From an uncultured Alphaproteobacteria bacterium (GTDB lineage Bacteria > Pseudomonadota > Alphaproteobacteria > RF32 > CAG-239), in NCBI GenBank assembly GCA_944391705.1, contig CALXUN010000002.1:8279-72278 (forward strand): DNA of 64,000 bases. Direction: 5' to 3'. The first letter of the stretch is position 1; each line of letters opens with the position of its first letter. The translations under genes and the position numbers were made by a program. Under the pieces are notes generated by a model. The model worked only from the letters and a program-made list of their open reading frames with translations. It was not told where the DNA came from and made no database searches. Of this stretch, positions 11,743-56,747 are shown in pieces.

Positions 11743-11985
11743 GTGCAAAGCTTTACACCAAAAAAAACAAAAGTACCAAGTGTTTTTAAAATATTTTATC
11801 ATCTGTTTTTTAGATGACGCTTTGAAACACTTAATTCACGGAAGCAAACATACTTGAGGAAGAACAGTAACAAACAGTAGGTTGTAACTTATCCCCTACA
11901 AGACTCTTTAAAATTGCAAAAAAAAAAAACAGTTTAGAATGACGGGCAAATCAGTATTTTTTGCAATTTTTCAGGAGTTCTTTGG

Positions 11986-12720
11986 ATGAAACATAATCTT
12001 TTTTCATTCTTATGCAGAGGGCTGCAGATGCGCCGTAACTTTTTAACGACGTGTACGATATCGGGTACACAAGGAAAAAAGTTACAAGCAGATATTGCTC
12101 TATGCGGAAGAAGCATGGTGGAGATGTTGGGGGTACTGGCAATTATTGGTGTGCTTTCGGTCGGCGCTATCTCGGGTTATTCCAAGGCGATGATGAAATA
12201 CAAACTCAACAAACAAGCCGAGCAATTAAGCTGGCTGTTTAACATTATCTATCAATACAAAGGACAGTTCGTTTTTGATAAGAAAACTTCCATGATACCT
12301 TTATTTACCAAATTAAATTTAATTGACCAAAATATGATACGTGCTGATAAAAAAGAAACAATCTACGATTCTTTCGGCAATGCCATCGCTATAGCCAACA
12401 ACAACGGCCCGAAGTTCAATGAAATTGTCTTGAATATGGGTTTACCGAAAAGCAGTTCTAACCGCTTGGCGATTTGTCAAAATGTTTTTAACGTTGCTAA
12501 AGCCCACAGTCCTTACCTGCTTTACATTCGCACCGACAACAGAGAAAGCCAAAGTGAGCCGGTAACCCCTTCCGATATGTATTACGGCGATAGCCTTTGC
12601 CAAAGTCGGGGAAATGGTGTAAATTGTATACGTTACGCAACTCTTGAAAACATTTATAATGTCTGCCAAAATTGTGATGAAATGCCAATTTGTTATTTTT
12701 CTATCACGTGGCGCATATAA
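11986..12720 (+). CDS. Prepilin-like protein (type IV pilin or pseudopilin N-terminal domain), paralog 1
   Basis: Class-III signal: ...ALCG|RSMVEMLGVLAIIGVLSVGAISGY, with Glu at +5 after the conserved Gly and a hydrophobic alpha1 helix. C-terminal Cys cluster (CQNCDEMPICY). Unusually long 40-aa leader. Terminator at 12748-12781. Confidence 0.65.
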   Translation: MKHNLFSFLCRGLQMRRNFLTTCTISGTQGKKLQADIALCGRSMVEMLGVLAIIGVLSVGAISGYSKAMMKYKLNKQAEQLSWLFNIIYQYKGQFVFDKKTSMIPLFTKLNLIDQNMIRADKKETIYDSFGNAIAIANNNGPKFNEIVLNMGLPKSSSNRLAICQNVFNVAKAHSPYLLYIRTDNRESQSEPVTPSDMYYGDSLCQSRGNGVNCIRYATLENIYNVCQNCDEMPICYFSITWRI

Positions 12721-12790
12721 TAGTATCATAAAACATTTATAGCATAAAAAAAACGCCTGATTAGGCGTTTTTTTTATAAATCTTCAAAGA

Positions 12791-15715: not shown

Positions 15716-16990
15716 ATGATGGAAAACCAAACTGAAGAAAAAACTCTTTCTGCGGCAGAGCCTGTCGTAAAGACAAATTCTGCCGGCCGTAAAACAACAA
15801 CGGCCAAAACAAAAAAACAAACGGAGACGACTGCCAAAAAAACATCAACCGCCAAACGCAGCAGTAAAACGGCTTCCAAAGCTGCCATGAAAAAAACGGC
15901 GGCAACAACTAAAAAAGCAAACCCGGCAGCCAAGAACCGCAATGCCGATATTAGCGCAGACATGGCCGTCAAAGACACTCCGTCAGCAGCCGCAGAACCT
16001 ATGGAAACCGGCATTTGGAAAAACTTTTGGAAATGCTTAAAAAAATACTTCACGTTTTCCGGCCGTGCATCCCGGTATGAATATTTTTCTTTCGGACTGT
16101 GTTTTTTCTCTATCACACTCGTAACGTCGATTCTCGGCGCTTTTTCCCAGTTTTTATCCTGGGTTTCAACCTTGTGTTATCTGCTTTTGATTATCCCGAT
16201 GTTTGCCGTTTTAAGCCGGCGTTTTCATGACATCGGCAAAAACTTATGGAACGGATTTTTTAACTGGATTGTATACGGCCTTATTTCCGCGCTTATCGTC
16301 GGAACCGTTTTTGTTATTTTTTCTGCCGCACCGGTCAAACTGGCTGTCCTCGGTGCCTTGTCATATGCTTTAATAACTTTTGTCTTATTTGGTATTGCCG
16401 TTTCGCTGCGCTGTCTGGTATATGTCTGCCGCCGCGGCCAGACCGAAACCAACCAATACGGCGATGTCCCGGTTCTTAACAACCCGGCAACCGAAAAAAC
16501 GGCATTTTGGATAATCGTCTTTTATTTCAGCTTAAACATCTTCTTTTATGTACTGATGACGGTTTTAACCTATACATACCAAAAAGATTTGCAGGAAAAT
16601 ACCTTAAAAACCGAGGCTCAATTTATTCTTTCGCAAAGAGCTATTGATAAAATATATACCGAAGAACTCTCTTATACCTGGTTAAACAACCAATCTGCGC
16701 TTGACTTGCAGTTACTTCCGCCGGACATGCCGGTTACCGGCGGTACGGGTATTGTTTCTGCCTTAGGGCTGCCGGTAAATTTCTACGGCTTTTTGGAATC
16801 ATACCTGATTGTGATGTGGAACGTTGATACCGACACCTGCCATACAATCCTGAACACGCCGTGGCGTTTACACGGGCTGCAATTAGTACAGATTCGGCAA
16901 AATCAGGCACCGGCCGTTGCCCTGACAAACTCATCGCAATGCTACCCATGCATGGATGGAAATTGTGAAATTGCCTGGCTCATACAGTAA
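15716..16990 (+). CDS. DUF805 (YhaH-like) inner-membrane protein with an N-terminal tail of about 100 aa rich in Lys, Thr and Ala, plus a C-terminal extension
   Basis: DUF805 signature FSGRASRYEYFSF...RRFHDIGKNLW, preceded by the low-complexity tail KTTTAKTKKQTETTAKKTSTAKRSSKTASKAAMKKTAATTKK. Good RBS AAAGGAAACAG. Terminator at 17003-17040. Confidence 0.6.
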   Translation: MMENQTEEKTLSAAEPVVKTNSAGRKTTTAKTKKQTETTAKKTSTAKRSSKTASKAAMKKTAATTKKANPAAKNRNADISADMAVKDTPSAAAEPMETGIWKNFWKCLKKYFTFSGRASRYEYFSFGLCFFSITLVTSILGAFSQFLSWVSTLCYLLLIIPMFAVLSRRFHDIGKNLWNGFFNWIVYGLISALIVGTVFVIFSAAPVKLAVLGALSYALITFVLFGIAVSLRCLVYVCRRGQTETNQYGDVPVLNNPATEKTAFWIIVFYFSLNIFFYVLMTVLTYTYQKDLQENTLKTEAQFILSQRAIDKIYTEELSYTWLNNQSALDLQLLPPDMPVTGGTGIVSALGLPVNFYGFLESYLIVMWNVDTDTCHTILNTPWRLHGLQLVQIRQNQAPAVALTNSSQCYPCMDGNCEIAWLIQ

Positions 16991-17134
16991 TTTATTAACA
17001 TACTGGAAATCCCCCGGAAAAAAACGGGGGACTTTTTTTTACATTTCACGCTAAGACTTTGGCAAAATCTGCCGGAAATAATGGATTTTAAAATTTTTCC
17101 TTGCAATATCCTCACAATTCCTTAATATAAATAC

Positions 17135-17290
17135 TACCGTCGTTTGACGGTGGTGTCCGTAAGACATCTTCATACCAAAAACTCCTTGTTTGGGGAGTGG
17201 AGGAAATAAGGCTTTGCTCGAATAACTCTGACTGTGGTATGACAGTTTTACGGCTCCCCACCTTAAAGTTTTTAAGGTGGTTTTGTTTTA
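17135..17290 (+). ncRNA. Candidate structured small RNA or cis-acting leader, copy A. Has a paralog at 56500-56655 on the minus strand.
   Basis: Promoter TTGCAA (17101-17106), 16 nt, then TAATAT (17123-17128). 5' hairpin CCGTCGTTTGACGG, internal ACUGU...ACAGU hairpin, anti-SD-like ACUCCUUG and GGAGG segments. Ends in an intrinsic terminator, CCACCTTAAAGTTTTTAAGGTGG followed by a T-run. Nearly identical in sequence to the copy at 56 kb. Confidence 0.45.
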
Positions 17291-17318
17291 ATTTATAAAC
17301 AAAGATGGAGTTAATAAA

Positions 17319-17627
17319 ATGATTTATTCTTTTAAACCCGGAAACGATGAATATATTCATCTTGTCAGCGGACTTATCCGCGAAGAACTCGGAAAAACCT
17401 TAACCCGAATTCGCAAAGAAAAAAATTTAACTATCCGTGAAGTCTCGGAAACAAACAGGCTTAATCTACCCATGTTGCATTCTCTGGAACAAAATACCAA
17501 ACGCAACGGGTGGATAAATTTTAAGAAAACCGCTGAAAAATACGGCTATGATTTAATGATACGCCTTAAATTCTCGGTTGATGTGGCAGCCCTTGAAAAG
17601 CCCAAACCCAGAGAGCATAACCGGTAG
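17319..17627 (+). CDS. XRE-family HTH transcriptional regulator (paralog A)
   Basis: HTH_XRE: ELGKTLTRIRKEKNLTIREVSETNRLNLPMLHSLEQN. The C-terminal YGYDLMIRLKFSVD is shared with the 56185-56460 paralog. Lies immediately downstream of RNA element A. Confidence 0.7.
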   Translation: MIYSFKPGNDEYIHLVSGLIREELGKTLTRIRKEKNLTIREVSETNRLNLPMLHSLEQNTKRNGWINFKKTAEKYGYDLMIRLKFSVDVAALEKPKPREHNR

Positions 17628-20363: not shown

Positions 20364-20716
20364 AATCGCTTTTCTCCATAATTAAATTTTCCTGCGCCAT
20401 ATAATGACAGCACCTTATAAAATACACAACCTAAATTATAGGACAATCCAATCAACAATTATTTCTAAATTGTCGTAAACACAAACGCCATAACACAGAT
20501 TCCTTAAAAAAATGGTATACAGACACCTGATTAAATCAAAACAAAAATCTTCCTGATTTCCCGGAGCAAGACCTGTTTAAAGAGAGCAAAAAAACGTACC
20601 GGAAGTATGCTCTCCTTTGCGCCAAAAGAATCTTTAAAGTTGCAAAAAAAAAAACGGTTTAGAATGACGCGTAAATCTTATTTGTTTTGTAATTTTTGTA
20701 ACTTTGGAGATTTTTT

Positions 20717-21553
20717 ATGAAACCTTGGTTTTCTTTATTCTTACGCAGAATGTTGCAGATGCGCCGTAACTTTCTGACGACGTGTACAACATTAGGTACA
20801 CGAGGAGAAAAGTTGCAAGCAGATGCGACTTTTTCCGGAAGAAACGAACGACCGCAGAACCGGACAGATGCGAAGCCTTGTTTGAGCGACGTGTACAAAA
20901 TGAGTACACGAGCGAAAAGAAGGCAAACAGATGTTCGGTTATCCGGTCGTTCTATGGTGGAGATGTTGGGAGTTTTAGCAATTATTGGAGTTTTAAGTGT
21001 TGGCGTTATCTCGGGCTATTCCAAAGCCATGATGAAGTATAAACTCAACCGACAAACAGAACAAATCGGTAGTATTCTAGATTATGTTCTGATTAATTCT
21101 GATAAGTTTAATCACGATACTTCCATAGCATTTATTTCATTATTATATAAATTGAATGCCATTCCGGTGGAAATGATAAGGGAAGATTGGATCTACGGCT
21201 ATGCTTATGACATATTCGGCAATAAAGTATATCTGAATGACAATAATGATGGAAATAATATTTATTATAGTTTATCCGTTTCCATCAGTAAATACTCGCG
21301 CGAAATTTGTATGAATTTATACCAAATGGCCAAGCTCCGTTCTGCCAATTTATGGCAAACCGTGTTTAATAAAGACACCCAAAGTTCTTCCATGGAACAC
21401 ACCAACAGAGTATGGGGCGATTCTTATTGCAGCAAATCAGTTACTTGCCTCAAAGATTTAAGCTTAACACAAATGGACGAACTTTGTTCAGCATGTGACG
21501 ATTCTCAAACCTATTGTAGATTTTATATTTTATGGGGTCGGATCAAACCTTAA
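20717..21553 (+). CDS. Prepilin-like protein, paralog 2, with a duplicated leader module
   Basis: Identical mature N-terminus G|RSMVEMLGVLAIIGVLSVGVISGYSKAMMKYKLN. The 77-aa leader contains a tandem duplication of the leader module. Divergent C-terminal domain with a Cys cluster (CSACDDSQTYC). Confidence 0.6.
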   Translation: MKPWFSLFLRRMLQMRRNFLTTCTTLGTRGEKLQADATFSGRNERPQNRTDAKPCLSDVYKMSTRAKRRQTDVRLSGRSMVEMLGVLAIIGVLSVGVISGYSKAMMKYKLNRQTEQIGSILDYVLINSDKFNHDTSIAFISLLYKLNAIPVEMIREDWIYGYAYDIFGNKVYLNDNNDGNNIYYSLSVSISKYSREICMNLYQMAKLRSANLWQTVFNKDTQSSSMEHTNRVWGDSYCSKSVTCLKDLSLTQMDELCSACDDSQTYCRFYILWGRIKP

Positions 21554-21661: not shown

Positions 21662-22125
21662 CCACCATCCGGTCAAGCCGCTTAAAAAGTTCGGATAACG
21701 AGTCAGATACGACGAACCCCTTTTTACATAAGAAGCACAAAGAATTAGACAGTTACGAAGAAAGCTTTCTTGTACCGCCAAACCAACGCCTGATTAAGCC
21801 GCTAAAAAAACAACAACCGCCCAAACACAAAGTCCGCCACCATTCCGTCAAGCCGCTTAAAAAGTTCGGATAACGAGTCAGATACGCCCCCTTTTTACAT
21901 AAGAAGTTCAGAGAATTAAACTGATACGAAGAAAGCTTTCTTGCACCGCCAAACTAACGCCTGATTAAGCCGCTAAAAAAAACAACAACCGCCCGGACAC
22001 AAAGTCCGCCACCATTCCGTCAAGCCGCTTAAAAAGTTCGGATAACGAGTCAGATACGACGAACCCCTTTTTACGCAGTGTACCCAAAATAGTACATAAG
22101 TAAAAAGGGGTTCAAGTAGATGACC
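21662..22125. repeat. Tandem direct repeat of about 175 bp, about 2.4 copies, ending in a hairpin
   Basis: Units begin at 21662, 21837 and 22009 (CCACCATYCCGTCAAGCCGCTTAAAAAGTTCGGATAACGAGTCAGATACG...). The last unit carries a 21-nt insertion containing GTGTAC-N8-GTACAT inside the hairpin AACCCCTTTTTAC...GTAAAAAGGGGTT. Confidence 0.85.
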
Positions 22126-48876: not shown

Positions 48877-48915
48877 CCAACCCCCGCATTGGGATGCGGG
48901 GGTTGGTTTGATTTA
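48877..48915. terminator. Strong bidirectional terminator
   Basis: AACCAACCCCCGCATTGGGATGCGGGGGTTGGTTT. Confidence 0.8.
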
Positions 48916-50823
48916 TTGTTTTTTAGTTGGTGCTTTGGTTACGTAGTTGTGATTACTGTTATAATCATAACATAGCTCAAAGCATCCATCTGTAACCATA
49001 ACATATGGAACAGAATTGGGATTTGGATTTTTCTTACCGGGTGTCCAGTGGTTATCCTCAGGCTTGGTGAAACATTCATATTCAGCGGTATGGTATTGTC
49101 CATCCGGGCACAATTGACATTTGTAACAAGTGTCATTACCTGCATATCCAACTGTACTTTCATAACCATAATATGGTGAATTATAGCATTCCGAACGGTT
49201 TGTCGTAATACCAGGTCCGGTCGGACAGGTTTTGGCTTTACATTTGTAACAACTTACATCACCTGAGCCGTTTTCATTAGCTTCAATAATGCTTGTATCC
49301 AATTCCCATCCGCCACTTTGGCCGCATTCTGAAACATCTTTAACAAAGCCGTCTATGCAAATACATTTATAACACTGTCTATCACCCCGATAAGAATCAC
49401 CCAATGTTGAACTCATATTCACGCCACAGAACCTTAGCACTGAATTCATACCAAATTCGTCTGTTGCGCATGACTTAGTTTCACATTGATAACACCCTGC
49501 CTCATCGGTATCCGTACCAAGCTTCCAGCCCTTTGTTCCGGTTTTCCCGCAATCAGCTGCCGTTTTTGCATAACCATCCGTACATTGAAGCGTTACGCAT
49601 TTATAACAACCCTTAACTGTAGCGTGTTCTTGAAGCGTTTGTCCGACAAAACAGGCTTGGAGCCGATTTGCAGAATAACCGGCAGGACAATCTTTAACAC
49701 ATCGATAACATCCTGTATCGCCGGCATAAGCCGTCGAATGATATTCCGCCTTATAATCACTACGGCAAATACCTAAATCTCCGGCAGTATATCCTGTAGG
49801 ACAGGATTTGGCTGCACAAGCACCGCAAACAATTACTTTATTGCCGCTGACAACCTTTTTAGTGTATATATTCCATCCGGCGCTCCCTGAATCACCGCAA
49901 TCTTCAACTTTTTGATACTTGGAAGAAGAACCAGCCGGACACACATCATCGTCGGTTTCTTCTTGACCTGGACAATACATATAACTTGAATCAAACGGGC
50001 ATTTAACCCCGGTTGTTCCGTCATCACATTTTGTTGCCTTGACATAACCAAGGGTTGCACAATCCGTAACCGTTGTTTGCGTCACATTGCACCAATATGC
50101 TTCCAGATTAATCTGTCCTTCTTCGCTGCAGGTTTCTGCACTGCAAAGATAGCAATTATCATGACCGTTATAAACCTGTTCGACCAGCGTTGTACAACCA
50201 TCTGTCCGGGAGCTGCATTCTTCGGTCGAATAGCTGTCATCGCAAATACAATAAGGATACCAGCGGCTGCCGTCCGGTTCCTCGCAATAATCCGTACCGC
50301 TTGGTTCTTTTAAACCTCTCTCATCGCAGCTATACGGATAAACAGTTCGGGAACAAGCACATTCCTCATATCTGATAGATCCATCAGCAGGGCTCCTACA
50401 GGAATCTCCGCTGCCGGATGCATTAGTATAGTCAGCACAACTTTCATACGGATAACGAGCCGGATTGCAAATGGTTTCAGAACCGGCACAGCCGCACACC
50501 GAATTAAAAGTTCCGGTACAAATATATTTACCATTTTCCAAATCCAAAACATTATCGCTGTTACAGCTGCAACGATAATATGTTTTGTCATTATAAATAC
50601 AAGTTTGCTCCTGATAACCTTCCGGACATGGCGTTGTCCGATCATATCCCTGACATCCCGTACCAAGCCAGCTGCTGTTGTCAATACAACCGTCACCATT
50701 TAAAACGCCGGGCAAAAAGCAGACTTTGGCTTCTGCATCTGCTGCCGCGATTAGTATAACCAACAGTAAAAATTTCGCCAATGTCCGCATACTCTTAAGC
50801 CCTTCAGATAACTTGCCGTTCAT
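48913..50823 (-). CDS. Secreted, extremely Cys-rich repeat protein, 636 aa
   Basis: Signal peptide MRTLAKFLLLVILIAAADAEA. About 7 tandem modules of 35-45 aa of the form C-[PT]-x-G-[YF]...G..GCY[KRQ]C... (GCYRCVKDCPAGY, GCYKCVTLQCTDGY, GCYQCETKSCATDEF, QCYKCICIDGF, SCYKCKAKTCPTGPG, TCYKCQLCPDGQY). Own promoter and an AGGAAAG RBS. Confidence 0.7.
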   Translation of the reverse strand: MNGKLSEGLKSMRTLAKFLLLVILIAAADAEAKVCFLPGVLNGDGCIDNSSWLGTGCQGYDRTTPCPEGYQEQTCIYNDKTYYRCSCNSDNVLDLENGKYICTGTFNSVCGCAGSETICNPARYPYESCADYTNASGSGDSCRSPADGSIRYEECACSRTVYPYSCDERGLKEPSGTDYCEEPDGSRWYPYCICDDSYSTEECSSRTDGCTTLVEQVYNGHDNCYLCSAETCSEEGQINLEAYWCNVTQTTVTDCATLGYVKATKCDDGTTGVKCPFDSSYMYCPGQEETDDDVCPAGSSSKYQKVEDCGDSGSAGWNIYTKKVVSGNKVIVCGACAAKSCPTGYTAGDLGICRSDYKAEYHSTAYAGDTGCYRCVKDCPAGYSANRLQACFVGQTLQEHATVKGCYKCVTLQCTDGYAKTAADCGKTGTKGWKLGTDTDEAGCYQCETKSCATDEFGMNSVLRFCGVNMSSTLGDSYRGDRQCYKCICIDGFVKDVSECGQSGGWELDTSIIEANENGSGDVSCYKCKAKTCPTGPGITTNRSECYNSPYYGYESTVGYAGNDTCYKCQLCPDGQYHTAEYECFTKPEDNHWTPGKKNPNPNSVPYVMVTDGCFELCYDYNSNHNYVTKAPTKKQ

Positions 50824-51681: not shown

Positions 51682-52368
51682 ATGAATGAACAAAAAAAAC
51701 CAACTGATGATACCATTCCTTATGTCGAATTTGCCGACAATGCCAATGAACGTACCCCCTGTGTGCTGGTTTTGGATTGCTCCGGCTCCATGCGCGGTGA
51801 ACCCATAAAACAGTTAAACGCCGGCTTAAGCGCTCTGGAAAAAGAACTGAAAGAAGACATTGATGCCAGCTCACGCGTTCAGCTTTTAATCATTAAAGCC
51901 TGCGGCAAAGACGAAGCCGTCATCAGCTCGGACTGGGTTGATGCCATGAACTTTACCGCGCCGGTTATGGAAGCCGGCGGTTTAACGCCGCTTGGCAAAG
52001 CCATGGAACTGGCTTTACAGAAAATCGAGGAACAAAAATGCCTTTACGACAGCTGCGGCGTTACCTCCAAACGTCCCTGGATATTTTTAATCAGCGACGG
52101 GGAACCCACCGACTACGGCTGGGAGCAGGCTGCCGAAAAATGCCGTTATGCCCAGCAGAATAAAAAAGTTATTATCCATGCCGTCGGCACTCAGGGGGCC
52201 AATTTGGAAAAGCTGGCAAAATTTTCCCTGATGTCGCCCAAACGCTTAACCGGGCTGAAATTTACCGAATTTTTCTTATGGCTGAGCCGCAGCGTTTCCT
52301 GTATTTCCAAAGCCGCCCCGAACGCGGATGATTTGCTTGAGGACATTAACGACTGGAATGATGAATAG
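51682..52368 (+). CDS. vWA-domain protein (TerY-like)
   Basis: MIDAS VLVLDCSGSMRGEP, ...T..., ISDGEPTD. RBS AAAGGA. Confidence 0.75.
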   Translation: MNEQKKPTDDTIPYVEFADNANERTPCVLVLDCSGSMRGEPIKQLNAGLSALEKELKEDIDASSRVQLLIIKACGKDEAVISSDWVDAMNFTAPVMEAGGLTPLGKAMELALQKIEEQKCLYDSCGVTSKRPWIFLISDGEPTDYGWEQAAEKCRYAQQNKKVIIHAVGTQGANLEKLAKFSLMSPKRLTGLKFTEFFLWLSRSVSCISKAAPNADDLLEDINDWNDE

Positions 52369-53107
52369 AAAACAGAACATACATATTGTTGCCGCCAGCG
52401 TAACCGGAACATATCACCGTGCCAAAAATCTTCCCTGTCAGGATTTTCATGCTCATGCCTGCCGGGGGAACAAGCTGGTTGCGGTTGTTTCCGACGGCGC
52501 GGGTTCGGCAAAATATGGTAAAATCGGTGCCAAAACCGTTTGCAGCACTTTATGCGATATTCTGATTTCCTGCCCGCTGGACGATATCCGCCAAAAAATT
52601 ATCGACGCTTTGGAAATTGCCCGCCAAAAGCTGATATATCACCGTTTTAACAAAACCAAAAGTGAAAACGGACTGGTTGATTTTGCCGCCACGGTTGTCG
52701 GTGCCGTCTATACCGGCAGCCGCGGCATATTTTTTCATATCGGTGACGGGGCCGCCATAGCTCTGGGAGATACAGCACAAAGCACCGTGGTTTCGCGCCC
52801 GGAAAACGGTTTGTTTTCCTGTGAAACTTATTTTTTTACCATGGACGACTGGAAAGACAGCCTGCGCTTCACCCCGTTTGAAAAAGCGCAAAGCCTGATG
52901 TTAATGACCGATGGTGTGACCGGTTTTGCTTTCACCAAAGATTACGACTGCCTGGAAAACAGGTTTATAGAACCGATTAACCGCTTTTTACGGGCTGAAC
53001 CCAACCGCCGCAAAGCCGTCCGTGCTTTAAACAACACATTGGGCACGCCGCGCGCCTGCCAATTAAATCCCGATGACAAAACGCTTTTATGGGTCGGTCT
53101 GAAATGA
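52358..53107 (+). CDS. PP2C-family Ser/Thr phosphatase
   Basis: VAVVSDGAGSAKYG and FHIGDGAAIAL metal-binding Asp motifs. Start overlaps the end of the vWA gene. Confidence 0.7.
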   Translation: MMNRKQNIHIVAASVTGTYHRAKNLPCQDFHAHACRGNKLVAVVSDGAGSAKYGKIGAKTVCSTLCDILISCPLDDIRQKIIDALEIARQKLIYHRFNKTKSENGLVDFAATVVGAVYTGSRGIFFHIGDGAAIALGDTAQSTVVSRPENGLFSCETYFFTMDDWKDSLRFTPFEKAQSLMLMTDGVTGFAFTKDYDCLENRFIEPINRFLRAEPNRRKAVRALNNTLGTPRACQLNPDDKTLLWVGLK

Positions 53108-54579
53108 ATCAAAACATAACTTCACAGGAAGCGGAATTTTTGTATTTTAACGCCATTTACGGCGACGGGCATTTTGAGCGTGAAAAGCTGGGCGAACTCT
53201 TAAACAAAGGTGGTGCTGCCGGCAAAATATATCGTGATGTCATTCACCCCGGGTTGGTAGCCAAAATCTTTCATGACCGCAGCAAAAGCCACACCAACCG
53301 CCAGAAGCTGGAAGCCATGCTGCACAACCGCCCGAACATTCCGCCGATTGTATATGACGGAAAAACTTATGTACAGATTGCCTGGCCGGAAGCGGTTTTG
53401 GAAGATGACGACGGCTTTTGCGTCGGCTATCTGATGCCGCTGATTAATATGAACGAGGCCGTTTCCTTAGACCACCTGATGCAAAAGGCCGTCCGTAAAA
53501 AACTGGGGCTTTCCGAAAGTTACAGCAACCGGCTGTATGCCGCTTATAATGTGGCCTCTATGGTTGCGGCATTGCACAAATGCGGCCATTACATTGTTGA
53601 CTTGAAACCGGCCAATGTTTCCGTTTACAAAGAAAACATGATTGTTGCCATGTTTGACTGCGACGGTTTTTCCATTAAGGGCGAAAAAGGGCGTTATCCG
53701 GCAGAATTTGTCAGTGAAGAATATATTTATCCGGAAGGAATGCAGCAAAATTGTGAGGAAATGGGCGAAGAACAGGATAAATTCGCTTTAGCCGTCATCA
53801 TATTCAAACTTTTAAACAACGGCATTCACCCCTTTTCCGGCACGCCGCGCAAATCTGGCAGCGAAATGCTGACCATTCAGACGCGGATTGAACAGTATCA
53901 TTACGCTTACGGCCTGTGGCCGGATTCTTATCAGGCGCCTAATCCTTACAGCATACACAATTATTTTGATAAAAAAACTTTGGAATTGTTTGACCGTGCC
54001 TTTTTAAAAGGCCAGAAACGTCCGTCTGCCAAAGAATGGCAGGAACACATGGAATATCTTTTCCGCAATTTAAAAACCTGCAAACAAAACCCGGATCATG
54101 TGTATTTTACATCCAGAGGCTGCGGTTTATGCGCCATTGAGGAAAAATTTAAGCAGAACATGGCCGCCGTCAAAGAAGAAAAAGCCATGCCGGTCAAAAT
54201 CCGCGGACTGGAAATATCCGAGCTTTCAACCGAAAAAACCGAACGTTTAAAACAAGAAAAACGCTTGAAGTTCATTAAACTGAACAAACTGACCTTAGCC
54301 GGCATCGTGCTATATCTTTTATTTTTCGGCAGCCTGTCGTTTATCCTAAAACCGGCGAAAGAGTTTCTGACATCGGGCGGTTATGCGCTGCAGCTGATTA
54401 TGATGGCCCTGCTTGTTAAAGTATTGTATACGGCAGGAAATCGCTTACAAGCCACTCTTCCGCTTTTAAAAAACCAGTCTTTGCTTAACATGCTTAAAAT
54501 TTATGCCCTGATTAACATCATTGTCGCATTTATTATCATAAACAATCTCGGTTTTGAAATTTTCCGGCCGGCCGGTTAA
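53104..54579 (+). CDS. Hanks-type Ser/Thr protein kinase with C-terminal coiled-coil and 2 TM helices
   Basis: Gly loop GGAAGKIY, VAKIF Lys, catalytic loop YIVDLKPANV, FDCDGF (DFG-like), YPE. ATGA start-stop overlap with the PP2C gene. Confidence 0.75.
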   Translation: MNQNITSQEAEFLYFNAIYGDGHFEREKLGELLNKGGAAGKIYRDVIHPGLVAKIFHDRSKSHTNRQKLEAMLHNRPNIPPIVYDGKTYVQIAWPEAVLEDDDGFCVGYLMPLINMNEAVSLDHLMQKAVRKKLGLSESYSNRLYAAYNVASMVAALHKCGHYIVDLKPANVSVYKENMIVAMFDCDGFSIKGEKGRYPAEFVSEEYIYPEGMQQNCEEMGEEQDKFALAVIIFKLLNNGIHPFSGTPRKSGSEMLTIQTRIEQYHYAYGLWPDSYQAPNPYSIHNYFDKKTLELFDRAFLKGQKRPSAKEWQEHMEYLFRNLKTCKQNPDHVYFTSRGCGLCAIEEKFKQNMAAVKEEKAMPVKIRGLEISELSTEKTERLKQEKRLKFIKLNKLTLAGIVLYLLFFGSLSFILKPAKEFLTSGGYALQLIMMALLVKVLYTAGNRLQATLPLLKNQSLLNMLKIYALINIIVAFIIINNLGFEIFRPAG

Positions 54580-54732: not shown

Positions 54733-56121
54733 TTGAAAAAATTAAATCCCATTATTTTATCAGGCAAAGAAGTCCTGCCCTTAATTGAAGGCGGCAAAGG
54801 CATTAACGGCAGCAACGGATACAGCTCCGGCGCCTGGGCAAGAGAAAACTGCGTCGGCACGTTTTCGGCTGTCAGCCCGGATACACTTGACAATAACGGC
54901 AACGTTATCATCGAAACATTTAAGAAGAAAATCCGTGCCGAACGCCATGAAGAAATGGTGCAATATGCCATTCAGGGCGGCATAGACCAGGCAAAAGTGG
55001 CACATGAAGTTTCCGGCGGCAACGGCCGCATCCACATGAATATGCTTTGGGAAATGGCCGATTCCGAACGGATTATTGCCGCCATCTTGGAAGGAAGCAA
55101 AGGCCTGATCCACGGTGTCACCTGCGGTGCCGGGCTGCCTTATCATTTAGGTGAGCTGGCCTCAAAATTCAAAGTTTATTATTACCCGATTATCTCCTCG
55201 GCCCGGGCCTTTCAGGTATTGTGGAAACGTGCCTATTCCAAATGCTCGGAATATTTGGGCGGCGTTGTTTATGAAGATCCGTGGCTGGCAGGCGGACACA
55301 ACGGTTTATCCAATGCCGAAAACCCCTTAGAACCGCAGTCGCCATACAACCGGCTGGTTGAATTACGTAAGCTCCTGCGTGAACTGGGGCTTGAAAAAAC
55401 ACCGATTATCATTGCCGGCGGAGTTTGGAAATTAAGTGAATGGGAAGATTATATTGACAACCCGGAAATCGGTGACGTTGCCTTCCAGTTCGGTACACGC
55501 CCGATGATTACCAAGGAAAGCCCGATAAGTGCAGCCTGGCAAAATGTTATGATGCACGTCAAAAAAGGCGATGTCATTTTACAAAGATTCAGCCCGACGG
55601 GGTTTTTCTCCTCGGCCATTAAAAACACTTTCTTAGAAAAACTGATTGAACGTAAAAAAGGCGAAATCGCTTTCAAAAACGAACCGGACAACGAATATTC
55701 TCATGCTTTGCCCATGAATGCCAACCGTACGGTTTACATCAAACCGGAAGACGCCGAAAAAGCCGACAACCAAATCAATGCCGGATTAAGCGTTATTCAG
55801 GAAACCCCTGATCAAACGGTTGTCTTTATGAGCCAGGAAGACTACAAAAAAATGAAGCAAGACCGTGCCGAATGCGTCGGCTGTTTGTCGCAGTGCCAGT
55901 TTTCAACCTGGTCGCGCGCTAACGGTACCACCGGCAAACTGCCGGATCCGCGCACATACTGCATTCATAAAACGCTTTATGAAGTCGGCCACGGCGGCAG
56001 CGTTAAAGACCATTTGCTGTTTGCCGGCCACCAGGTTTACCGCTTTGCAACCGATCCGCTGTATCGCAACGGTATTCCGACAGTAAAAGAACTGATTGAA
56101 AAAATCAAAGTCGGCGAATAA
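54733..56121 (+). CDS. FMN-dependent NMO (2-nitropropane dioxygenase/enoyl reductase-like) family oxidoreductase with C-terminal extension
   Basis: TIM-barrel motifs GVTCGAGLPY and IIAGGVW. TTG start with an AAGGAAAAAA RBS. Confidence 0.55.
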   Translation: MKKLNPIILSGKEVLPLIEGGKGINGSNGYSSGAWARENCVGTFSAVSPDTLDNNGNVIIETFKKKIRAERHEEMVQYAIQGGIDQAKVAHEVSGGNGRIHMNMLWEMADSERIIAAILEGSKGLIHGVTCGAGLPYHLGELASKFKVYYYPIISSARAFQVLWKRAYSKCSEYLGGVVYEDPWLAGGHNGLSNAENPLEPQSPYNRLVELRKLLRELGLEKTPIIIAGGVWKLSEWEDYIDNPEIGDVAFQFGTRPMITKESPISAAWQNVMMHVKKGDVILQRFSPTGFFSSAIKNTFLEKLIERKKGEIAFKNEPDNEYSHALPMNANRTVYIKPEDAEKADNQINAGLSVIQETPDQTVVFMSQEDYKKMKQDRAECVGCLSQCQFSTWSRANGTTGKLPDPRTYCIHKTLYEVGHGGSVKDHLLFAGHQVYRFATDPLYRNGIPTVKELIEKIKVGE

Positions 56122-56460: not shown

Positions 56461-56499
56461 TTTTATAAGCTCCTTTCTTTTGTTCATACTAAAATTAAA

Positions 56500-56655
56500 A
56501 ACAAAACCGCTTTAGAAAATTCCAAAGCGGGGAGCCAAAAAACTGTCACAATGCAGTCAGAGTTATTCGTGCCAAAGGCCTTATTTCCTCTACTCCCCCA
56601 AAGAAGGAGTTTTATTGTGAAGATGTTTTTTGGACACCACCGTCAAACGACGGCA
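56500..56655 (-). ncRNA. Candidate structured small RNA or leader, copy B (paralog of 17135-17290)
   Basis: Promoter TTGCAA (56684-56689), 16 nt, then TAATAT (complement of 56662-56667). Terminator CCGCTTTGGAATTTTCTAAAGCGG followed by a T-run on the minus strand. Sequence is near-identical to copy A, with compensatory substitutions in the stems. Confidence 0.45.
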
Positions 56656-56747
56656 GTGCTTATATTAAAGAAATTCCCCATTTTTGCAAGTGTTTTTTAA
56701 AAGCTCCCTCAAACGGGAGCTTTTGTTAATTACTCTCATTTGTTGAC

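Follow-up and report, generated by a model that had tools for sequence, protein, structure and literature searches.

In Neisseria pilE/pilS antigenic variation and in the R64 PilV shufflon, one constant N-terminal part of the pilin can be joined to any of many C-terminal parts, and the vlp genes of Mycoplasma hyorhinis phase-vary by means of a poly(A) tract that lies in their promoter spacer, with a changing subset of the genes expressed. Genes for characterised type IVb (T4b) pilins share one operon with those for their own peptidase, ATPase, platform and secretin and for a single minor pilin, and the sequence hallmarks of these pilins are a length of about 200 amino acids (aa), a long leader, a variable residue 1, the absence of Pro22, and Gly14 and Gly19 (PMC10710030). 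Rickettsia palindromic elements (RPEs) and other miniature inverted-repeat transposable elements are known as in-frame palindromic insertions into open reading frames (ORFs) (PMC10969869). Here we analyse two pilin-like genes, gene 1 (11986-12720, 244 aa) and gene 2 (20717-21553, 278 aa), on the forward strand of a 64,000-nucleotide (nt) stretch of contig CALXUN010000002.1 from an uncultured alphaproteobacterium; this whole stretch is called the window, and positions are counted from its first letter. Sequence comparison and structure modelling indicate that the two loci are probably independent transcription units of one greatly expanded family of T4b-like pilin subunits in uncultured gut Alphaproteobacteria.

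The 5′ regions of the two genes are built alike. Over 11860-12260 and 20590-21080 the mean column identity in a MAFFT alignment is 77%, with a single large gap of 108 nt (36 codons) that is filled in copy 2 only, and a repeat search pairs 11908-11971 with 20633-20696, 11981-12112 with 20712-20843, and 12065-12225 with 20904-21064. Common to 11906-12225 and 20632-21064 are a promoter-like block (TTGCAA, a tract of 11-12 A, TAGAAT), a ribosome-binding site (RBS) with an ATG, a leader, and the sequence encoding G|RSMVEMLGVLAIIGVLSVG.ISGYSKAMMKYKLN, where the bar marks the predicted cleavage site. The RBS and start, read from the sequence, are AGGAG at 11973-11977 and ATG at 11986-11988 for gene 1, and GGAG at 20706-20709 and ATG at 20717-20719 for gene 2; they sit about 35-45 nt 3′ of each promoter block, and the same arrangement recurs in family members about 27-44 nt past the −10 hexamer. 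The leader of gene 1 comprises 41 codons (11986-12108, Gly-1 at 12106-12108) and that of gene 2, whose ORF is continuous from the ATG, 77 codons (20717-20947, Gly-1 at 20945-20947). The mature T4b-like pilin 1 follows at 12109-12720 (203 aa and stop), with an invariant α1 helix at about 12109-12225 and a variable, Cys-containing head, and mature pilin 2, a full-length homologue that forms one row of the alignment behind the structure model, at 20948-21553 (201 aa and stop). A first-pass annotation of the window had reported near-identical nucleotide stretches in the two 5′ regions and a promoter element, leader and mature N-terminus common to both genes, with Arg as the mature +1 residue, and the alignment and direct reading bear this out. 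It had also described unusually long leaders of 40 and 77 aa; the unusual length and the second figure stand, the first becomes 41 when Gly-1 is counted, and the mosaic of in-frame palindromic modules of which these leaders consist had gone unnoticed. Its statement that the C-terminal domains diverge completely is wrong, as the two proteins are homologous end to end (BLASTP, 39% identity, E 2e-53) and the positions of their cysteines are kept. An exact-sequence look-up of the gene 2 protein returned no record.

The shared N-terminus is maintained as protein. Across the family the mature sequence begins RSMVEMLGVLAIIGVLSVGAI.GYSKAM.KYKLNKQAEQ, with Glu5, Gly14 and Gly19 and with Ala or Ser rather than Pro at residue 22, and in both window genes G|RSMVEMLGVLAIIGVLSVGAI provides Gly-1 and Glu+5 followed by a hydrophobic helix, the pattern of a class III signal peptide. 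In the alignment of 92 members, R1 to L10 do not vary and Gly-1 hardly does. A set of 93 genomic copies, selected by a pattern that fixed Gly-1 and Ser2 to Gly8 and left Arg+1 and residues 9-39 free, has Arg+1 in 93 of 93 cases, written with all six Arg codons, and residues 9-35 are essentially invariant while each is encoded by 2-6 synonymous codons. Between the window copies, the helix-coding DNA is only about 73% identical and the protein is identical at 38 of 40 positions; the Gly-Arg-Ser codons are GGA AGA AGC in copy 1 and GGT CGT TCT in copy 2, all three differing synonymously, and the cleavage-site segment is therefore read as protein. These codon patterns show that the first ~36 mature residues are fixed by selection on the protein and not by gene conversion. 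The cassette as a whole is likewise shown to be kept alike by selection rather than by recent copying, the predicted promoter as nucleotides and the helix as protein with saturated synonymous sites. Each copy is an independent unit with its own conserved putative promoter, RBS and start.

The predicted fold of the encoded proteins is that of pilins. An AlphaFold model computed on the 92-sequence alignment (predicted local distance difference test 88, predicted template modelling score 0.81) consists of a helix spanning residues 5-53 and an α/β head with a four-stranded sheet, the "lollipop" architecture of pilins. All top structural matches of the model are pilins, a Foldseek search ranks TcpA first (E 8e-6), and the full-length fold matches the assembled pilins CofA and TcpA. 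The variable head, about 165 aa long, is TcpA/CofA-like with conserved cysteines. Every sequence hallmark that has been listed for T4b pilins is present in the window genes (203 and 201 aa, leaders of 41 and 77 aa, R1, G14, G19, A/S22); family-wide the long leader is a mixed trait, many copies having only 4-7 aa. The first-pass reading of pilin-like proteins that carry variable heads behind one expression and one targeting cassette is thus upheld in its core, and the fold search now directs it to T4b pilins.

The family had been called small, which it is not. A word-indexed search yielded, at 90% identity, upwards of 7,743 clusters that all lack a name and a Pfam domain, and an exhaustive HMMER search gave 5,590 clusters at 50% identity with E ≤ 1e-3, of which 3,964 reach E ≤ 1e-10; no Pfam or NCBIfam model and no assigned name exist for the family, and literature searches on the N-terminal motif and on pilins of gut Alphaproteobacteria returned nothing relevant. 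At least 558 copies were confirmed in one-genome-per-species contigs. Counts of taxa, of copies per metagenome-assembled genome (MAG) and of contig ends refer to the best 80 of these at least 558 copies, all of which come from MAGs of uncultured gut Alphaproteobacteria, from human, horse-type "BRZ" and roe deer samples. The copies are dispersed, at least 9-14 per MAG, mostly as single genes amid housekeeping genes, mutY/fabF and adhE/rpoA in the window and pyrH/plsY-dprA-topA elsewhere. In 37 of the 80 cases the contig ends within 450 nt upstream of the mature N-terminus as would be expected if the repeated 5′ cassette breaks short-read assemblies, and the copy numbers of MAGs are therefore probably underestimated. 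One bin, "Lachnospiraceae bacterium H07603-L1_cleanbin_000017", holds at least 8 copies (L008, L012, L021, L031, L036, L047, L063, L066) and their promoter cassette is the one seen in the Alphaproteobacteria MAGs; the Lachnospiraceae label of the bin is probably wrong.

The promoter-like block is the non-coding part of the cassette and is conserved at the nucleotide level across species. In copy 1 it reads CTTTAAAATTGC-A12-CAGTTTAGAATGACG (11906-11944), and its predicted core (11914-11940) consists of a −35 TTGCAA (11914-11919), A12 (11918-11929), CAGTT and a −10 TAGAAT (11935-11940), with a 15-nt spacer. Copy 2, CTTTAAAGTTGC-A11-CGGTTTAGAATGACG (20632-20669), differs by one A fewer and two substitutions; within it lie TTGCAA (20640-20645), A11 (20644-20654), CGGTT and TAGAAT (20660-20665), spaced by 14 nt. 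Two clades can be told apart in the family, with promoters of the form ...ACTTATCCCCACnAGACTCTTTAAAATTGC-A(8-12)-CGGTTTAGAAT in one clade and ...ACAACTTATnCACAGCnnGGACTCGTAAATATTGC-A(7-12)-CGCGAGCTAAAAT in the other, and both keep TTGCAA and a TAnnAT hexamer. The spacer measures 15 nt in 47 of 61 copies (77%) in both clades, with a range of 12-17 nt, and is reached as A12+5 in one clade and as A10+7 in the other. The same spacing is thus composed of different A-tract and linker lengths, and there is therefore good comparative evidence that the putative TTGCAA and TAnnAT elements function as a pair whose spacing is under selection. A further conserved block precedes copy 1, AACTTATCCCC-n-AGACTC (11886-11906, forward strand), with a degenerate counterpart in copy 2; many MAGs have it ahead of family members, in a different version in each of two clades, and it is a possible regulator site. 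Of 70 promoter cassettes, 64 precede a pilin gene and five of the other six are cut by contig ends; a single complete cassette serves something other than a pilin, at locus L032 (851-1982), where it drives a Cys-rich protein of 353 aa that carries a Sec-type signal peptide. Two other promoter assignments were considered and dropped. Sigma-54 promoters are typical of many pilin genes, and by inspection the GG/GC spacing does not suit one in either clade; a CtrA box, TTAA-N7-TTAA, occurs at Caulobacter pilA, and here only a half-site-like TTAA is present.

Between the two hexamers, a homopolymer of 7-13 A occurs in every copy examined. Four independent assemblies of the gene 1 locus differ by 0-6 substitutions over 2-6 kilobases (kb), and their only indel is A12 versus A13; in ten assemblies that share an identical P0095 protein, the tract occurs as TTGCC-A11, TTG-A13, TTG-A14, TTGC-A12 or an A20 variant. 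Because it is the only indel among near-identical assemblies and is variable among the P0095 orthologues, the A tract is the most mutable site of the locus. This variability fits a slipped-strand switching of promoter strength, where the switching itself is a proposal.

The leaders of the family range from 5 to about 165 aa. Many members have leaders of only 4-7 aa, as in MRENG|RS, MNTQSG|RS and MKFYQSG|RS, and in the long-leader copies the distance from the −10 to the RBS and ATG is unchanged while the added DNA comes after the first codons and before Gly-Arg-Ser. The basic leader is thus one of 4-7 residues, and long leaders result from the insertion or inverted duplication of family-specific palindromic modules. 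Gene 1 carries module A1, GTAACTTTTT..GTGTAC-N8-GTACAC..AAAAAAGTTAC (12035-12085, forward strand), which forms a hairpin in the centroid structure of the folded segment 11950-12125. Gene 2 carries A1 with the apex CGTGTAC-N8-GTACACG (20766-20816, forward strand, RNA fold) and in addition module A2, a long hairpin GAACGACCG...CGGTCGTTC (20846-20952, forward strand) that corresponds to the 108-nt insertion relative to gene 1, appears in both the minimum-free-energy and the centroid structures, and encodes Gly-1, Arg+1 and Ser+2 of gene 2 in its 3′ arm. RNA-fold z-scores are −2.9 for the gene 1 leader and −6.5 for the gene 2 leader, or −9.3 for the latter with an independent shuffle, and 36 long leaders average −4.3 versus +0.3 for equal-length controls from the mature regions of the same genes.

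The reading frames of the long leaders are kept open. The RBS-proximal start is in frame with G|RS and there are no stops in essentially all long leaders, compared with 0-9 stops, usually at least two, in the other two frames; indels are multiples of three, 108 nt for the window pair and 102 nt for P0023 versus P0024. Long leaders are in this way shown, by their reading frames and comparison between copies, to be translated and to be made of fast-evolving palindromes specific to the family. The same GTGTAC..GTACAC arms are read in different frames depending on the module (TCTxxGT, DVYKxGT, TCTNKVH), and constraint on the modules therefore acts on nucleotides. In the second clade, hairpins occur in both orientations and their arms show compensatory changes, for instance ATATTCGGG/CCCGAATAT, ATTATCGGG/CCCGATAAT and CACTCCGA/TCGGAGTG. 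Module content turns over rapidly: locus L001 is a syntenic orthologue with 85% nucleotide identity over about 7 kb but with different modules, and P0023 and P0024, 100% identical in their mature parts, differ by the presence or absence of a 34-aa A2 module. A blastn search of 907 kb, made up of the window and about 80 related-locus neighbourhoods, places 62 module matches inside pilin leaders and one weak 18-nt match elsewhere, in agreement with a regular-expression scan; Rfam returned nothing relevant in the leaders or elsewhere. Outside any leader, a distant look-alike of module A is seen at 22061-22113, a palindrome with a 14-base-pair stem, GAACCCCTTTTTAC..GTGTAC-N8-GTACAT..GTAAAAAGGGGTTC, followed by CAAGTAGATG. 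It ends a tandem repeat (21662-22074, 2.4 copies of a 172-nt unit, 91% matches) between gene 2 and the 3′ end of rpoA, whose unit was not found in the other loci examined.

Several results weigh against a T4b-like pilin assignment, and the missing machinery is the main weakness. Pfam scans of 38 non-ribosomal ORFs bear out the first-pass statement that the window has no prepilin peptidase, no secretin and no assembly ATPase, and tblastn with E. coli HofB, HofC, GspD, GspE, GspF and GspO gives no match there. Neither Walker A and A24 motif scans nor tblastn detect an A24 peptidase, a T2SSE-type pilus ATPase, a platform protein or a secretin anywhere in the 907 kb. The sequence models speak in the same sense: Pfam N_methyl (PF07963) scores 12.8 and 12.1 bits for the window proteins against a cut-off of 21.2 and matches 70 of 92 members, all below threshold (best E 0.0099); TIGR02532 scores 10.1 against 16.3; and a profile search of PDB sequences gives nothing significant. 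To our knowledge, no characterised pilin has Arg at +1. With regard to the promoter, a consensus scanner that needs a 16-18 nt spacer makes no call, 15 nt is not the optimal spacing for sigma-70, and A-tract lengths could differ through homopolymer errors in assembly. The GspH-type and prepilin-type NCBIfam models are also far under threshold, a search of the 907 kb with a class III signal pattern finds no further pilin-like (minor pilin) gene beyond the family, and the single-operon arrangement of T4b systems is not found, both window genes and about 80 related loci standing isolated among housekeeping genes. The only superfamily match by tblastn in the 907 kb is a VirB11-like type IV secretion ATPase. 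At L059 (721-6008; also at L067 and L070), a family member is followed directly by this ATPase, of 323 aa, and by a 1,434-aa protein whose C-terminus is VirB10/TrbI-like; the assignments derive from a weak GspE tblastn match and a reading of the sequences, and they denote type IV secretion and not a type IV pilus. The proximity of this locus to the pilin gene was judged coincidental.

Alternatively, the proteins might not be pilus subunits at all but bitopic inner-membrane or surface proteins held by the N-terminal helix, left uncleaved or handled by an unrelated machine, so that the T4b likeness would reflect ancestry only. No pilus machinery is linked to the genes in the window or in the neighbourhoods, although characterised T4b pilins sit in operons with theirs (PMC10710030), and Arg+1 is atypical. 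We nonetheless consider this improbable, as strong purifying selection has kept Gly-1, Glu5, Gly14, Gly19 and the first ~36 residues invariant in thousands of paralogues, an invariance that exceeds the needs of a membrane anchor and is expected if all copies must fit one peptidase, platform and filament core, and the fold matches the assembled pilins CofA and TcpA over its full length. The highly structured leader, conserved at the nucleotide level, might alternatively be an untranslated 5′ region with RNA hairpins and a translation start near Gly-Arg-Ser. This is very unlikely: the modules are preceded by an RBS and ATG, whose distance from the −10 is that found in short-leader copies, no RBS or start codon follows them, and the open frame and the indels in multiples of three (108 and 102 nt) are those of coding sequence. 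We give equally little credence to the idea that the 5′ regions are alike through concerted evolution, by recent duplication or gene conversion of a DNA cassette, or because they are a dispersed non-coding repeat with no relation to the ORFs. The near-identical stretches in promoter and leader do suggest copying, and the first-pass annotation had read the region as a duplicated cassette; but since the invariant residues use 2-6 codons family-wide and the helix DNA of the window copies is only about 73% identical, against 38 of 40 residues in protein, gene conversion or recent duplication is not the cause of the helix likeness, and recent gene conversion was rejected as the origin of the shared cassette on the codon evidence from the 93 copies. 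A non-coding repeat, which the same annotation had named as the outcome that would overturn its reading, was also tested, and the repeat is always coupled to a pilin ORF.

Two further proposals concern how the cassette might work, of which one would add to the T4b-like pilin reading rather than replace it. Slipped-strand mispairing in the A tract may alter the −35/−10 spacing and thereby switch single pilin genes, so that a changing subset is expressed. The tract lies exactly between TTGCAA and TAnnAT in every copy, it alone carries an indel among the four gene 1 assemblies, the P0095 orthologues show four tract versions and the A20 variant, and spacers span 12-17 nt across copies. The modal 15-nt spacer in 77% of copies, attained in two clades by different A-tract and linker lengths, argues in the other direction, for stabilising selection on length, and assemblies are consensus sequences in which homopolymer errors are possible; as such, we regard phase variation as a tentative suggestion. 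A similarly tentative standing applies to the modules as functional cis-elements, either as mRNA hairpins after the start codon that affect translation rate, stability or RNase III sites, or as DNA cruciforms that trigger recombination between copies. Their very strong structure (z down to −9), their restriction to the leaders of the pilin family, the compensatory arm changes in the second clade and the overlap of the A2 3′ arm with the Gly-Arg-Ser codons are all consistent with a function. Many copies, however, have a leader of 4-7 aa and no module, module content varies between orthologues and alleles, suggesting that the choice of module is little constrained, Rfam yields no matching family, and no recombinase or partner was identified.

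We therefore return to the T4b-like pilin family as the favoured explanation. In each copy the parts follow in one order, a putative promoter in which a tract of A10-12 makes up most of the spacer, a short 5′ untranslated region with RBS and ATG, a leader ending in Gly, the invariant N-terminus and a diversified head. A prepilin peptidase would cut at G|R, and one shared machine would insert or assemble all subunits through their common helix, such that this machine and the filament core could account for the invariance of the helix. The variable heads may constitute a repertoire of interchangeable surface subunits that serve adhesion or evasion of immunity or phages. Modules would be tolerated in the leader if it is cytoplasmic and is cut off by the prepilin peptidase, leaving only continuity of the frame under selection, and slippage in the A tract may tune or switch single copies. 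A bolder combination, which we consider rather unlikely, is that A-tract promoter and palindromic modules jointly form a new switching device, whereby one or a few of dozens of dispersed complete pilin genes would be expressed at a time, the modules would act as mRNA or DNA hairpins over the cleavage-site codons, and the subunits with their Arg+1 helix would be handled by unlinked machinery, possibly other than that of classical T4b pili. If true, this would be a form of antigenic or adhesive variation distinct from pilE/pilS conversion, shufflons and invertible promoters.

If the favoured explanation is correct, widespread uncultured gut Alphaproteobacteria of humans, horses, deer and other hosts give over dozens of the genes in each small genome to pilus subunits that can replace one another, and current annotation has missed the family entirely. 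Such a family would be a likely determinant of gut colonisation or of immune and phage evasion. It would also serve as a natural experiment, both on the tolerance of class III signal peptides, given Arg+1 and leaders of 5 to about 165 residues, and on the harmless expansion of palindromic DNA in coding sequence.

Other features of the window are recorded here. A hairpin, AACGCCT-GATT-AGGCGTT, flanked by an A-run and a T-run (12746-12775, no strand assigned) lies between gene 1 and the convergent fabF; it is not listed by the terminator scanner and is likely a bidirectional intrinsic terminator, judging from its sequence. The ORF at 15716-16990 encodes 424 aa with an N-terminus rich in Lys, Thr and Ala, a DUF805 membrane domain and, towards the C-terminus, a domain of ~170 aa that matches no family and ends in a Cys cluster; a relationship of this domain to the pilin head was rejected (hhalign probability 2%). 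A repeated element of ~190 nt occurs in the window at 17100-17305 (forward strand) and 56492-56672 (reverse strand), and also at L001 5271-5474, L007 4769-4929 and L008 3615-3776. It opens in promoter-like fashion with TTGCAA..TAATATAA, and its conserved body is joined by a terminator-like stem with compensatory changes between copies; it has no Rfam match, a window copy lies directly upstream of a small helix-turn-helix gene (17319-17627), and the element may represent a small RNA or a cis-regulatory leader that has escaped annotation. A cluster at 51682-54579 encodes a VWA-domain protein, a PP2C phosphatase and a Ser/Thr protein kinase, and is adjoined by several ORFs without family match (48913-50823, 636 aa; 54733-56121, 462 aa).

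The family shares with TcpA of Vibrio cholerae and with CofA/LngA of enterotoxigenic E. coli a mature length of ~200 aa, a long leader, a residue 1 other than Phe, Glu5, Gly14, Gly19, the absence of Pro22 and a Cys-bridged head. It differs from them in that no sequence homology is detectable, the +1 residue is Arg rather than Met, leaders vary from 5 to about 165 aa and are built of palindromic modules, and the genes are dispersed monocistronic paralogues, numbering at least 9-14 in each MAG, where those systems have one gene within an operon for the machinery. With pilE/pilS and R64 PilV it has in common the joining of a constant N-terminal part to varied C-terminal parts; in contrast to those systems, every copy here is a complete gene that brings its promoter, RBS and start with it, silent cassettes are absent, and neither recombinase sites nor an invertase were seen. 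Like the M. hyorhinis vlp genes, it is a multigene family with a conserved 5′ region and an A tract between the −35 and −10 that varies in length among near-identical strains. The tract here is strongly modal in length, however, with a 15-nt spacer in 77% of copies, switching is a proposal here, and the organism and protein type are unrelated. The modules resemble RPEs as palindromes of ~50-110 nt that lie within coding sequence, in frame and free of stops, in both orientations in the second clade, and in an alphaproteobacterial lineage. While RPEs are scattered over unrelated genes and intergenic DNA, the modules are found in the leader of one gene family only, and they may arise by local inverted duplication rather than by transposition.

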